Assembly: GCA_965237955.1 (NCBI GenBank)
Contig: OZ250169.1
Span: 1,504,001 to 1,568,000, forward strand
Direction of reading: 5' to 3'
Origin: Candidatus Marinacidobacterales bacterium
GTDB lineage: Bacteria; Acidobacteriota; Vicinamibacteria; Marinacidobacterales; SMYC01
Length of the DNA: 64,000 nucleotides
The notes beneath the pieces are model-generated. The model was not told where the DNA came from. It searched no databases and saw only the letters and a program-made list of their open reading frames with translations. Every line of letters begins with the position of its first letter. The stretch's first letter is position 1. Below are positions 24,956 through 34,037 of this stretch, in pieces. A program made the position numbers and the translations under genes.

Positions 24956-25075
24956 GCTCGACTTCCTTCAGCCAGAAGCGAGCATAGCACAGCGCTTCGG
25001 TACTCTGGCTGATGAGACGACGCCGGCGCGTCGAGCAATTTGACGGCGCCACACCATCGAGGTGTAGGATCGGCC

Positions 25076-25336
25076 ATGCCGGTGACTCGAACGCCTACGG
25101 TAACGGACACGAGCCGCGACGCGGAGAAAGTCCTTATCGAGCTCCTCAGGGCGACCCCACCGTGGCGCAAGCTACAGATGGTGGACGACTTGAATCGGTC
25201 GTTACGTCAACTCGTCTGGAGCGAGCTTGCTCGAACCCACCCCGAGCGATCGGACAAGGAGCTTCGCGTCCTGCTAGCGGAGCGACTCTATGGGGCGCAC
25301 GTTGCCGAGATACTCTCGAAGGCCCTCAGTGGCTAA
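25076..25336 (+). CDS. Small helical protein, probable partner (antitoxin-like) of the downstream nucleotidyltransferase
   Basis: DTSRDAEKVLIELLRATPPWRKL...RLYG; overlaps the start of the NTase gene. Confidence 0.6.
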   Translation: MPVTRTPTVTDTSRDAEKVLIELLRATPPWRKLQMVDDLNRSLRQLVWSELARTHPERSDKELRVLLAERLYGAHVAEILSKALSG

Positions 25337-25849
25337 CGTCCCAGAGCCCGAATTCATCGCGGTCACAGTCCGTATCGCCCAGCTCCTCGAGAAGCTCGGG
25401 GTTCGGTACGCGATCGGAGGACAGTCGAGGCTGTGAGAGGGGATTTCTACGTGGCAGAAGAACATGTGACGACGGCCGTCGCTGGCGGTAAGAGTTTCAA
25501 CCTCATCGCGCTCGACCCGATATTCAAAGTCGATATCTTCGTCGCGAAAGACAAGCCCTTCGAAATCTCCCAACTCGATCGGGGCCAATCGCTAGCTGTC
25601 TCGGCCGATTCAGAAAGCTCAGCAAGAACGCTCTACGTTTCCTCCCCGGAGGACGTCGTTCTGGCGAAATTGCAGTGGTATCGCAAAGGTGGTGAGGTTT
25701 CCGATCGCCAATGGCAGGATGTTCTCGGTGTCCTCCGAGTACAAGGCTCAGCGCTCGACCGTGACTATATACAGCGCATGGCTACGCGAGTGGACGTGGC
25801 GGATCTACTCGCCCAGGCACTCAGCGAGGCCCATTCGTTAGGGTCTTGA
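25329..25849 (+). pseudogene. Nucleotidyltransferase (DUF6036/MenT-like) with the catalytic region deleted
   Basis: LEKLGVRYAIGG then a break; resumes at FNLI....FKVDIF, SPEDVVLAKL.W, DRQWQDV; the PR.T.D.D motif is missing. Confidence 0.7.
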
Positions 25850-25851
25850 TT

Positions 25852-26074
25852 CAGGTAGCCTGAGAAGAAGAGCTTGATCAAGAACAATCCAAGGATCTCA
25901 TCAACATCGAGAGGATCACGGACGCTGTAACTGACGTCACCAGCGAAAAATTGCGCGACGTAACTTGGGTCATCGTTGATCAATGAGGAGGTCAAGAGCG
26001 GCCATTGGGGCGTAGGTGGTAACGCGCTCGGTCTTGATGATGTGAAAAACATGATGGCAGGAGATTCTCAATGA
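25852..26074 (+). pseudogene. 4-oxalocrotonate tautomerase-family remnant
   Basis: Hand translation: DLI..ERITDAVTDVTSEKLRDVTWVIV...EVKSGHWGVGGNALGLDDVK; 5' end lost, stops/indels; its TGA overlaps the next ATG. Confidence 0.7.
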
Positions 26075-26646
26075 ACTACCCAATGCACCCTGAGTTGAAG
26101 ATTGGCAACAAATTCCCGGACTTTGAATTGCCGGACCAGACCGGTACGCCGCACAAACTGTCGCATCTTTTACGCGGGTTCCCCGGCGTGCTTATTTTTG
26201 GCCGCGGCTATTATTGACCCAAAGACCGTCGTCAGTTGACGAACTACGTGACTCATCTTCAGCCGGAGATGAAAATTAACTACTGCAAACTGATCACCGT
26301 TTCGGTAGATGACAAAATGAATACCAATGAGACCCGCGACGCCCTGGCCGCCGAGTGGCCCTTTTTGATGGATCCCGACCGCCGGCTGCTCTACGAAATG
26401 CAGATGATGGATACTACCGATCCAGTACATGGCGAAGTTTACATTCCGTATTCTTTTTCTCTGGATCGGGATCGGACGATCTACAAGATCTACAACGGCT
26501 GGTATCATGTTGGACGGCCAACAATAGAAGAGATTCGCCAGGATTGGCGCGCCTTGTTGAGTCACCGCCGGGATTACGTTTATGATCCGTCCAGGGCACC
26601 AGCGCCGAAGGGAAACGCTTTCTATGATCGGCGTGATCCGGAATAG
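26071..26646 (+). CDS. Redoxin/AhpC-TSA-like probable selenoprotein (Sec at codon 49)
   Basis: AGGAGA RBS; GNKFPDFELPDQTG...RGYY(TGA)PKDRRQ in frame with ORF 26236-26646; hairpin just 3' of the TGA. Confidence 0.75.
26218..26250 (+). promoter_or_regulatory. Putative bacterial SECIS hairpin
   Basis: TCGTC-AGTT-GACGA stem-loop; G-containing loop about 16 nt after TGA 26215-26217. Confidence 0.55.
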
Positions 26647-26706
26647 GCGAACTTTTTCGATCTTTTGTTGCTCGGCGAATTTACAGAATAGCCTGGAGAT
26701 TGGGCA

Positions 26707-28026
26707 CTAGGCCATGCGAGCCCAGCGGATGAGGGTGCGGAGGTTCGGTGGCTTTCCGTGCATCAGAAGGCCGATGCGAAAGATTTTGCCCGCGAACCAA
26801 AGCGCCGCGTAGACCGACGCGACGCCGATCGCGAGTGACAGTGCTACTTGCCAAAATGGAGGCGGTGAGTTGCTCGTCAGGCGCAGAAGCATTACGAACG
26901 TGTTGACCGGCGGCAGAAAGCTCGTCACCACGGCGAGCATGGAATTGGGGTTGCGGCTGATGGGAAGCCACAGGAGCCACGGCACCATCATCACAAACGC
27001 GAGTGGCGTCATGAGCGTTTGCGCTTCGCGCAGCTCGTTGACGGCGGCGCCGACGGCCGCCATCATCGATGCGATGACGAAATACGCAATCAAGTAAGAG
27101 ATCAACATGTACACGACAAGACCGATGTCGATGGCGCCGGTGAGCGAGAACGCAACGAGCCCAACGAGTCCTGCGCCCGAATAGAGGAAGAGAACGAGAA
27201 GCCCGACGCCGAGCTGCCCTAGAATTTTTCCAGTCATGAGCTCCATCGGCGAGACGGCGGCCAGGAGCATCTCCACCACCCGACTCTGCTTCTCCTCGAT
27301 CATCGTCGTCATCAAGTACTGGCCACTCACGAGAACGGACATGAGCACGAGAGCCATGAACGTAAGCGGCAGTAGCGTATTCAAGAGCTCGAACGTCTCG
27401 CGCTCTCCGTTCTCGGTAACGGTCGTCGATCGGCGATACGGCACCCGGATCAACGCGTCGAGCTCGTCGCGATCGAGACCGCGTGCGTCGACGCGAGCGT
27501 CCACGATCGCGTCTCGAATCGCGGAATGGAGCTCGCGTTCGAGACGGTCGTCGAGCTTCTCTCGGACGAAGAGCTCGTAGCTTCCTCGTGCACCGTCGAC
27601 CGCAGCGTCGGGGATAACGGCAATCGCGAGCGGACCCGAAACCGCTCGCAGAGAAGATTTCGCCGCGTCGACGTCGCCATCGTGGAGGATGACATCGAGC
27701 TTCGGGACTTCACCGAGCACGCTCTGAACCGCCGCCTCACCCACTCGGGTCGGCATGACCTCGGCAGCATCGTCTAGAAGCTCGGCACGTTTATCGGCGA
27801 GCGCGGCCAGCCCCAAATAGTCGCGCACACCCGGATACACCAGCCCGGTAGGGTCGCTCACGAGAACTTCCCCTACGATCGGCGGTGTGGCCTCGCTCAT
27901 GAGAACCGGCATCAATACCAAGGTGACCGCGACGAGGCACGGTGTGAGGAGGATGCCGATGATGAATCCCTTCGTCAGCACCGCCGACAGAAACTCGCGG
28001 CGCGCGACGTGCACAATCCGCGTCAC
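26707..28026 (-). CDS. ABC-2 permease (NatB/YhaP-like)
   Basis: ARREFL, EEKQSRVVEMLLAAVSPMELMTGKILG, multiple TM helices. Confidence 0.9.
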   Translation of the reverse strand: MTRIVHVARREFLSAVLTKGFIIGILLTPCLVAVTLVLMPVLMSEATPPIVGEVLVSDPTGLVYPGVRDYLGLAALADKRAELLDDAAEVMPTRVGEAAVQSVLGEVPKLDVILHDGDVDAAKSSLRAVSGPLAIAVIPDAAVDGARGSYELFVREKLDDRLERELHSAIRDAIVDARVDARGLDRDELDALIRVPYRRSTTVTENGERETFELLNTLLPLTFMALVLMSVLVSGQYLMTTMIEEKQSRVVEMLLAAVSPMELMTGKILGQLGVGLLVLFLYSGAGLVGLVAFSLTGAIDIGLVVYMLISYLIAYFVIASMMAAVGAAVNELREAQTLMTPLAFVMMVPWLLWLPISRNPNSMLAVVTSFLPPVNTFVMLLRLTSNSPPPFWQVALSLAIGVASVYAALWFAGKIFRIGLLMHGKPPNLRTLIRWARMA

Positions 28027-29765: not shown

Positions 29766-31149
29766 CTACTCGACGAGCGCCTTTTCTACCGGAAGCCGGT
29801 ACCAGCCTCGCTCGACGCGAAGGCGAGACGACATCCGTAGCGGCCAGCGAAAGACGGACGGCGTCGGCCCGTAGCCGGGCCTCTGATAGAAGCGAAAGCT
29901 CTCGACAAGCCGGTACGTGTCTTCGTTCACCCAGGGGCCCACGCCGCCGACATAGTCAAAATCTGCCCACTCTTCGAGCGATTGCGGAAACTCGTAGTCA
30001 CCGGGTGAAAGATTCTGCACGATTTCCGCTCCCGGGTAGGGCCAGTAATAGAAGAGGGCCACTTCGAAGGCGGGGCTCATGGCGCGCAAACGGCGGGCGA
30101 CATCGAGAGACGCTTGGACCGACTCCGCGTCCTCTCCGGGAAAGCCGACGATAAATGGGAAGATGGCACCAATGCCATAGCGAACGCAGCTCTCGGCGCA
30201 TTCGAAGACCTGGCCGATCTCGATGTCCTTTTTCATCCAGTCGAGCATCTTCTGAGAGCCCGACTCCACGCCGATCATGACGCGTGTCAAGCCTGACCTC
30301 TTGGTCTTTTCCCAAAGGAACTCGTCCATGCGGTGTCCCTGGTCGGCACGCAAAGTCGCCGTCCACGAAACGCATCTCGGCCGCCAGTAACGCTTCGGCG
30401 ATGGCGTCCACCCGTTTCGGGCTGGTGAAAAATGTCTCGTCCTGAAAGGCCACTTCCTGAAAGGGGTAGACCCGCCACCAATATTCAAGCTCATCCACTA
30501 CCCGTTGGGGCTCGAGACCCGTCCATCCCCTTCCGTAAACGAACGGGTCGGCGCAGAAGGCACAACGAAACCGACAGCCCTGAGAGGAGATGTAGTCGAG
30601 CTGGCGATGTCTCTTGCGCCGGTAGTACTCCTCCACCGGCACGAGGCGGTAGTCGACTCGGGGAAAGGCGTTGACGTCACCGAGCGGACGCGGGCGCTCG
30701 ACGCGAGGCCGCCCTTCGGCTCGATGGGCGGTGCCGGCAACGCCGGCAACGCTCTCACCCCCGGCCAGACGTCCGATAACTTCGCCAACGCTCTCTTCGC
30801 CCTGCCCGATGACGACGACGTCCACCGAGCTCTCTTCCAGACACTGTTCAGGAAAGAGCGAAGGGTGCCAGCCGCCCCAAACGACGTGAAGATCGGGGCG
30901 GCGGGCCTTGACAGCGCGCGAAACGGCCAGGGCGTCGCGAATGGGAGCGCCGGTGAGGACCCCAACGCCGAGACAAAGTGCGTTCTCAGCGGCCTCGACG
31001 ACGGCGTCGATAGGGTCCTCCTCAAGCCGTCCGTCCACCACTACGACCTCGAACCGGCTACGGTCGAGGGCCGAGCCCACCGCCATCACGCCGAGGGGCA
31101 TGGTATGGAAAACGCCCGGGGGGTTGTATAGGACGACACGGTCCGACAA
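29766..31149 (-). pseudogene. B12-binding radical SAM protein, frameshifted near 30345
   Basis: PLG, WGGWHPS, SQGCRFRCAFC (CxxxCxxC), FQDETF; continues with GVESGSQ, FIVGFPGE in another frame. Confidence 0.85.
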
Positions 31150-33395: not shown

Positions 33396-34037
33396 AGGTA
33401 AACCCCCGGCTCTGCCGGGGTGACTCCCAGAGGTTTGACCGTGTAAGGAAGTAGGAAAGAAAGTCCTCCTTGGAAAGCGCGAACTTCCAAACAAGGAGGA
33501 CTACCAAGGTGAAAGAATACAAGAGCCTATCCCACACACGATGGGACTGCAAATATCACGTTGTGTTCATCCCGAAGTACCGAAGGAAGAAGATGTATGG
33601 TGCAATCAGAACGCATCTGGGAAAGATTCTCCACGAGCTGGCGAAACAAAAAGAGGCCCGGATTCTGGAGGGCCACTTGATGTCGGACCACGTCCACATG
33701 TGCATCAGCATCCCACCGAAGTTTGCGGGTGTCGAACGTGGTGGGGTTCATCAAAGGCAAGAGTGCGATCTCGGTGGCACGGAACTTCCGCGGACGCAGA
33801 CGCAACTTCACCGGCGAAAGCTTCTGGGCACGCGGTTACTTCGTGTCGACCGTAGGCTTGGACGAAGAGATGGTCCGCAAGTACATTCCAAGAGCAGGAG
33901 GACCAACGTCTGGACCAGCTGAATATGGACTGGTCGGGCTCGTAGTTGGGGAGCAAGATCGCCCCCTTTAGGGGGCTCATGAACAGCCCCTTCGAGGGGC
34001 TCTTATGAATAGGCCCCCGGCTTTGCCGGGGGTCACT
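33396..34037 (+). mobile_element. tnpA: IS200-type element; Y1 transposase tnpA (from 33509) is frameshifted
   Basis: KYHVVFIPKYRRK, DHVH (HUH), FWARGYFVSTVG; subterminal hairpins CCCCGGCTCTGCCGGGG and CCCCCGGCTTTGCCGGGGG. Confidence 0.92.

Follow-up and report, generated by a model that had tools for sequence, protein, structure and literature searches.

A redoxin frame with a single TGA

The window (the whole stretch of DNA analysed, 64,000 nucleotides) holds on its forward strand a gene for a redoxin, whose frame runs from an ATG to a TAG stop and contains one in-frame TGA and no other (Table 1). A 191-aa frame with these limits, an AGGAGA before the ATG and the TGA at this position had been proposed in a preliminary description of the DNA, and all of them were recovered from the sequence. 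PF00578 (AhpC-TSA) scores 57.6 bits on the protein against a cut-off of 26, and PF08534 scores 40.4 bits. The landmarks of the product are a U49-P-K-D52 motif, an invariant-like Pro126 and the C-terminal signature YNGW-x3-GRPT. A hairpin follows the TGA, and a broken remnant of another gene reaches the redoxin from upstream, its stop (26072–26074) overlapping the start codon as ATGA.

Table 1. Features at the redoxin locus, in positions of the window
Feature	Position	Strand	Remarks
Tautomerase-like remnant, broken, in two frames	25864..26074	+	Incidental neighbour; stop overlaps the redoxin ATG
AGGAGA, Shine-Dalgarno-like	26059..26064	+	6 nt upstream of the ATG (sequence)
AhpC/TSA-domain (Prx-like) redoxin gene, 191 aa	26071..26646	+	PF00578 match; predicted model with pLDDT 86
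In-frame TGA, predicted selenocysteine codon 49	26215..26217	+	First-Cys position of thioredoxin CxxC
Predicted bacterial SECIS, TCGTC-AGTT-GACGA	26229..26242	+	5-bp stem, AGUU loop 16 nt after the UGA

The TGA is not an assembly error, since it recurs in contigs from the public runs of separate studies. One such contig shows no difference across the whole stretch and may itself be the source of the DNA, and a second shows none over 26023–26755. A strain variant carries 22 other letters; among the variants listed, none lies in the TGA or in the hairpin. No transcript of the gene was found, three runs recorded as RNA or guessed to be RNA yielding only contigs of divergent relatives, and a promoter and terminator scan upstream of the gene gave nothing above shuffled sequences.

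The catalytic column and the selenocysteine machinery of the host

A protein search returned 386 homologues. When residues, rather than codons, were compared in the best 120 of the 386, column 49 was Cys in 116, Trp in 2, Ser in 1 and Leu in 1, which agrees with the earlier view that the TGA occupies the redox-Cys position, and column 52 was Asp in 117 of the 120. Codon 49 is TGY in 17/17 genome loci found by a pattern-based scan, one pattern of which contained the Cys. The genes selA, selB, selC and selD are all present in the host genome, each over its cut-off: the tRNA for selenocysteine (Sec) scores 72.6 bits (cut-off 47), SelA 544, SelB 366 and SelD 275 bits. Eight of the 26 AhpC/TSA matches of the host carry one TGA, none of the 26 carries TAA or TAG, and each of the eight TGAs belongs to an active-site motif, such as T-x-x-U or U-x-x-C. 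The hairpins of the seven TGA redoxins other than the window gene, two of which are identical copies, have a G-loop and energies of -8.5 to -11.7 kcal/mol. The host is selenoprotein-rich.

A reading of the UGA as Trp or Cys, by an alternative code or leaky readthrough, would be in line with the Trp shown by two database proteins (P0025 and P0077) and with an otherwise intact homologue (L163, genome G503) whose catalytic column is encoded by a genuine TGG (Trp). However, the only tRNA of the host with a TCA anticodon is tRNA-Sec, its tRNA-Trp having CCA, and Trp is rare at catalytic Cys columns; P0077, moreover, stands among TGA genes on the tree and, judged from its protein sequence, fits a gene-caller code artefact. 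We regard such a reading as very improbable and Sec as the residue to be expected at codon 49.

The seven further TGA genes of the host lie on G000:C1 at 7196488, 2917207, 7826398, 5653830, 5975066, 4321040 and 5215989, and the gene at 4321040–4321489 is a G-G-U-T-L-Q-F form without a second Cys. Host SelD (L007, G000:C1:4040942–4041856, minus strand) forms part of a 750-aa open frame in which another domain precedes it, and its N-terminal motif has Cys, not Sec. Three pairs of AhpC/TSA matches on G000:C1 have identical scores (2917207/7826398, 2988686/8045527 and 2081076/2979275), which suggests that segments are duplicated or that the assembly is redundant (contamination 6.2%).

TGA recurs at codon 49 and the frame behind it is under selection

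Metagenomes were scanned with a degenerate pattern in which the TGA was demanded and the hairpin was not, and at least 119 stretches were returned. Among the matches listed, 111 of 119 proved by tblastn to be true homologues, and eight were dropped as chance. More than 100 homologues thus have TGA at the codon-49 column, where the preliminary description had foreseen Cys or TGA, and their identity to the window protein ranges from 33 to 92%. Of these TGA homologues, at least 111 in number, 52 reach a stop after at least 120 codons, 53 stay open as far as the available DNA extends and 6 stop early, so that 105 of the 111 among the matches listed have no premature stop.

A scan that demands TGA says nothing on the ratio of Sec to Cys; genome searches free of this bias show the Sec forms to be a minority. 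One class of 401 genomes had 58 with a match and two TGA matches, another of 301 genomes had four with a match and no TGA, and among 400 genomes sampled from the host's phylum 18 other genomes gave a match, four of them with TGA, a tally that includes the unpublished genome G788. A further candidate, G174, was rejected as a TGA genome: its codon 49 is TGC and its TGA is the end of the gene. Co-occurrence of the Sec machinery does not discriminate between the two forms, since selA was also found in 5/5 Cys-form genomes tested. As for other genomes with U-P-K-D, G506 has selA, selB and tRNA-Sec, and the fragmented G411 has tRNA-Sec, with no selA and no selB over the cut-off.

Downstream of the hairpin, dN/dS was 0.04–0.27 in eight of nine pairs with the window gene, one pair being saturated, and the window gene gave 0.14–0.27 against its nearest relatives. 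Purifying selection acts after the TGA. These data bear on the possibility that the gene is a pseudogene in which TGC or TGT has mutated to a plain nonsense codon: a single base change leads from TGY to TGA, broken genes adjoin the locus, and premature stops do occur in 6 of the 111 TGA homologues among the matches listed. Against this, the TGA is shared by at least 111 homologues on several branches and over the whole range of identity, the protein is constrained past it, and it is accompanied by a covarying hairpin that is absent from Cys forms. A nonsense mutation is already largely refuted and retains a very small probability as compared with a decoded Sec codon.

A putative SECIS hairpin behind the UGA

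The stem arms occupy 26229–26233 and 26238–26242 and the loop 26234–26237, with a G at loop position 2; stem and loop, the 16-nt spacer and the loop G are all as first described. By ViennaRNA the hairpin has -4.8 kcal/mol alone and -6.6 kcal/mol with a lower stem, and it is the weakest among the host's eight TGA redoxin genes. Its AGUU loop, 5 bp and 16 nt comply with the bSECIS consensus in the legend to Fig. 2 of PMC13188914, while the energy limit of -7.5 kcal/mol stated in that review is missed, and the hairpin was not filed as a canonical bSECIS. The UGA plus 38 nt folds at -6.6 kcal/mol with a z of +0.22, and 111 of 200 shuffles fold as well; the folding energy was consequently rejected as a stand-alone proof, not being distinguishable from chance. 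A comparison with Rfam gave one match, with an E of 0.93 and under the gathering score. The evidential weight of the hairpin comes from comparison across genes and not from energy alone.

When distinct genes with an identity of ≥55% were compared, 48 of 50 TGA forms (the window gene included) and none of 10 Cys forms had, at the same register, an AGUU loop closed by a stem of 4 bp or longer. We aligned the hairpin in 47 of 68 distinct TGA stretches, namely 46 close ones and L097, leaving out L082, L124, L134 and other distant ones. In this alignment pairing holds in 88.7% of cells, and both sides have changed in 12 cells, values neither of which is reached by any of 500 shuffles, the covariation counts being inflated by related sequences. 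At columns 18/25 the 47 sequences have U-A in 33, C-G in 9, U-G in 3, G-C in 1 and no pair in 1, and the swap from U-A to C-G is a silent Arg change combined with Thr57Ala. The window hairpin has the commonest stem-loop sequence of the family.

Synonymous choice is nearly frozen at four codons. In 58 close TGA genes, codons 53–56 read CGT (54/57), CGT (49/58), CAG (58/58, Gln55) and TTG (57/57, Leu56), with a variability of 0–0.62 bits versus 0.68–1.92 bits at other conserved codons. Residue 58 is Asn in 118 of 120 database proteins (the best 120 of 386) and in 10 of 11 Cys loci, and Thr in 25 of the 58 TGA genes; Thr58 adds a sixth pair to the stem (G-C in 22 of 47). The sole Cys locus with Thr58, L018, is placed among TGA genes on the tree, a position that would fit a reversion to Cys. 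As judged from these alignments, the hairpin is under selection at the RNA level.

Sec/Cys switches, a second hairpin and a sister branch

A tree was built from 90 loci (54 Sec, 36 Cys) with the codon-49 column masked and with near-duplicates and the TGG row left out. It requires 13 changes between Sec and Cys, at least 7 of which are forced by strong branches, and a single Sec clade is rejected (AU p 0.0002, with long branches present). Since the tree is unrooted, gains and losses of Sec are indistinguishable. A loosely defined hairpin was found in 48 of 54 Sec versus 12 of 36 Cys loci; upon correction for phylogeny, the link between Sec and this loose hairpin had the expected direction and was not significant (7 pairs, median p 0.06).

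Another branch, which is some 40% identical and reads R-R-Q-A-E-G-L, is without the AGUU hairpin and has a different one, whose loop lies 29–30 nt after the UGA. This second hairpin was present in 11 of 12 TGA genes versus none of 26 others (25 Cys and 1 TGG), in a search window chosen after seeing the data.

Besides, four genomes of one genus form a sister branch that shares the C-terminal signature of the window family at 37–39% identity. Its motif is U-P-K-C in L194 (G831) and L195 (G892) and U-P-K-U in L197 (G844) and L198 (G1046). A hairpin is located 30 nt after the first UGA and 21 nt after the second, and the U-P-K-U forms thus have two in-frame TGAs and one hairpin within SECIS range of both. 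Both selA and selB are present in 4/4 of these genomes, and the branch has no NCBIfam model over the cut-off.

Predicted fold and proposed chemistry

A structure model was built with Cys in place of Sec, and in this model residue 49 stands at the start of a helix formed by residues 50–62. The model matches the folds of BCP, AhpE and Prx6 (Z 18–20, identity ≤24%), the closest solved fold being 3hjp (Bcp4; Z 20.2, rmsd 2.4 over 155 residues); a sequence search found no close solved structure (best E 2.5e-7). The first Cys of ResA, the first Cys of the host's U-x-x-C redoxin and the Thr found in peroxiredoxins all share a column with Sec49; Asp52 falls on the peroxidatic Cys of peroxiredoxins, and Pro126 on their catalytic Arg and on the Pro of thioredoxin-like proteins. 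Pro is present at column 126 in 119 of 120 homologues. The alignment bears out the proposed U-x-x-D, rather than U-x-x-C, in a thioredoxin register. Unlike peroxiredoxins, which have P-x-x-x-T/S-x-x-C/U, the window redoxin has R45-x-x-x-U49-x-x-D52. The defining residues being absent and the active site being in the thioredoxin-type register, the protein is not a peroxiredoxin, whatever database names say.

In 150 family representatives, 39 of them with an unreadable motif, C-P-x-D/E was found in 101 of 111 readable motifs, and by this comparison an acid at position 52 characterises the whole family. That this acid stands in for the resolving residue is confirmed by the U-x-x-C/U sister branch, and because of the Asp at the second position the window motif is devoid of a resolving Cys or Sec. 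Cys72, conserved in 106 of 120 proteins (the best 120 of 386), lies at the start of strand 73–78; we infer from the model that its distance to Sec49 is too great for a resolving role.

Altogether, the window gene is predicted with very high confidence to be a genuine selenoprotein gene. Of the three outcomes by which the preliminary description would have been refuted (a genome lacking sel genes, no further homologue with TGA, Trp as the aligned residue), none was observed. With equally strong confidence, and by reference to the established SelB/SECIS pathway, SelB carrying Sec-tRNA would bind the loop of the hairpin and Sec would be inserted at UGA 49. Only slightly less certain is the reading as a whole, in which one gene encodes a 191-residue thioredoxin-fold redoxin, UGA 49 very likely becomes Sec by way of the AGUU hairpin, and the product is a predicted single-selenol U-P-K-D enzyme. 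The selenolate of Sec49, at the start of the active-site helix, may attack a peroxide or a disulfide, a chemistry that we consider evenly balanced between right and wrong. With Asp where a resolving Cys would stand, the oxidised selenium would depend for its recycling on an external thiol, either a small thiol or thioredoxin/glutaredoxin; on the model of 1-Cys peroxiredoxins and monothiol glutaredoxins, we regard this as the likeliest cycle. The conserved acid at position 52 could act as a proton donor or as a residue that positions the substrate. Among 849 flanking ORFs at about 90 loci the largest shared cluster covers six loci, and no conserved neighbour pointed to a substrate.

Known relatives and what is new

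The Prx-like thiol:disulfide oxidoreductase selenoproteins with U-x-x-C or U-x-x-U, as given in Table 1 of PMC13188914 and by a representative in the supplement of PMC12013277, have in common with the window redoxin PF00578, F-x-R-G-x-x-U-P where the active site begins and an in-frame SECIS, as well as Sec at the first thioredoxin position and Pro where peroxiredoxins have Arg. The window redoxin differs from this class by Asp at the second position (Glu in many Cys forms) and by a C-terminal signature of its own, and its identity to the host's own U-x-x-C member is 29% over 100 aa (E 0.005). A single-Sec motif without a second Cys is also found in the U-x-x-S AhpC/TSA selenoprotein (cd02970) and in the SelL-related NF040769. 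The latter is the best NCBIfam match of the window redoxin, yet it reaches 30.1 bits versus a cut-off of 120, and the motif is U-x-x-D and not U-x-x-S. No model of NCBIfam 20.0 scored over its cut-off for nine members tested (the window gene and eight others). The peroxiredoxins BCP/PrxQ, AhpE and 1-Cys Prx6, T-x-x-U forms included, share the Prx-type fold at ≤24% identity, and a G-R pair before the last helix of the window redoxin aligns with the G-R-N of host AhpC and of Prx6-like proteins.

The Cys forms of the same family are 65–84% identical and have C-P-K-D, with a TGY codon and no hairpin. Their source names are 'peroxiredoxin', 'redoxin domain-containing protein' and 'AhpC/TSA family protein', none of which mentions selenium, and in the ESM Atlas only the generic cluster names 'peroxiredoxin/redoxin' were found. 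A title-level literature search found no function in print for these C-P-K-D redoxins.

None of the 119 families in Table 1 of the 2026 review PMC13188914 has U-x-x-D; its AhpC/TSA-type entries there are T-x-x-U, U-x-x-C/U, U-x-x-S and UGC, and a different motif is treated in that table's scheme as a separate subfamily. The motif is not listed in the portions of PMC9312934 and PMC2398784 that were compared, and 'UPKD' does not occur in the supplement text searched for PMC12013277 and PMC2398784. Literature searches for a UxxD selenoprotein and for UPKD brought up nothing relevant among the papers listed, and entries of BSepDB (PMC13326102), as far as its description goes, could hold members under a Prx-like name. 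On these sequence comparisons the subfamily is absent from the catalogues compared, its recoding mechanism is standard and its function would be that of the inferred redox enzyme. As the recoding mechanism itself is textbook, the surprise is limited.

More tentatively, and with a little less than even confidence, we propose that this is an uncatalogued family with many Cys/Sec switches, at least two SECIS hairpins in coding sequence, an RNA structure that overrides protein conservation (Asn58 to Thr), U-P-K-D, U-P-K-C and U-P-K-U sites, and a single hairpin that serves both UGAs of the double-Sec forms; its U-x-x-D members would be single-selenol enzymes, to which the conserved acid gives a chemistry unlike that of thioredoxins and peroxiredoxins. 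Gene callers cut U-P-K-D genes at the UGA, and a widespread redox protein is consequently mis-annotated and missing from selenoproteome counts; the short hairpin, under the usual SECIS energy limit, suggests how such families get missed. The family is a natural series with close Cys/Sec pairs, two hairpin designs and D, C or U at the second motif position, suited to test how a SECIS originates inside coding sequence, what it costs the protein and what Sec brings without a resolving cysteine.

Genomic context

A stop and a frameshift interrupt the remnant upstream of the redoxin, and these breaks are also seen in short-read contigs. The tautomerase label given to it is weakly supported by Pfam (PF01361, E 0.1, 12.9 bits versus a cut-off of 22). 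Translational coupling of the redoxin to this remnant, which had also been put forward, is not supported for the present day, the remnant being broken and found beside none of the other homologous loci; the redoxin is provided with a ribosome-binding site of its own, so that any coupling would be no more than a relic. In the close relatives L076 and L087 the corresponding start is preceded by AGGAGG, and no tautomerase is present. Coupling to a tautomerase was likewise rejected as a trait of the family, none being present beside other loci. A PF01361 search found no intact tautomerase in the host, and there was no plasmid match.

Horizontal acquisition of the redoxin gene is suggested by its sequence surroundings, since 60 relatives searched gave no homologue, the nearest genes are metagenomic and the local GC dips to 0.51–0.54 versus about 0.60 around. 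On such recently acquired DNA the window copy could be a decaying, poorly decoded passenger, even within a real selenoprotein family. The same distribution and GC dip would fit this, as would the two broken genes upstream, a SECIS weaker than in any other TGA redoxin of the host, and the strain variants of the gene, 6 of 12 among those listed altering an amino acid, one of them at a column invariant in 29 sequences. The frame is nevertheless whole and is kept by strain variants in other studies, the hairpin has the commonest form of the family, and dN/dS against the nearest relatives is low; decay is improbable, and we retain a functional selenoprotein gene as the preferred reading.

In the closest relative, L091 (92% identity), the end of a transposase-like element is located directly upstream of the gene and resembles a broken one at 33470–33971 of the window, which we take to be IS200/IS605. 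The arrangement is a hint that the redoxin gene may move with mobile DNA. Further upstream in the window, at 25040–25849 on the plus strand, a two-gene module consists of a 98-aa ORF and a gene broken by a frame change near 25430, which also appears in short-read contigs. The module gave no Pfam, NCBIfam or PHROG match of note; its second gene presumably resembles a nucleotidyltransferase-type protein. Finally, a gene at 29766–31149 on the minus strand, presumably similar to a B12-binding radical SAM protein, is apparently split over two overlapping frames.
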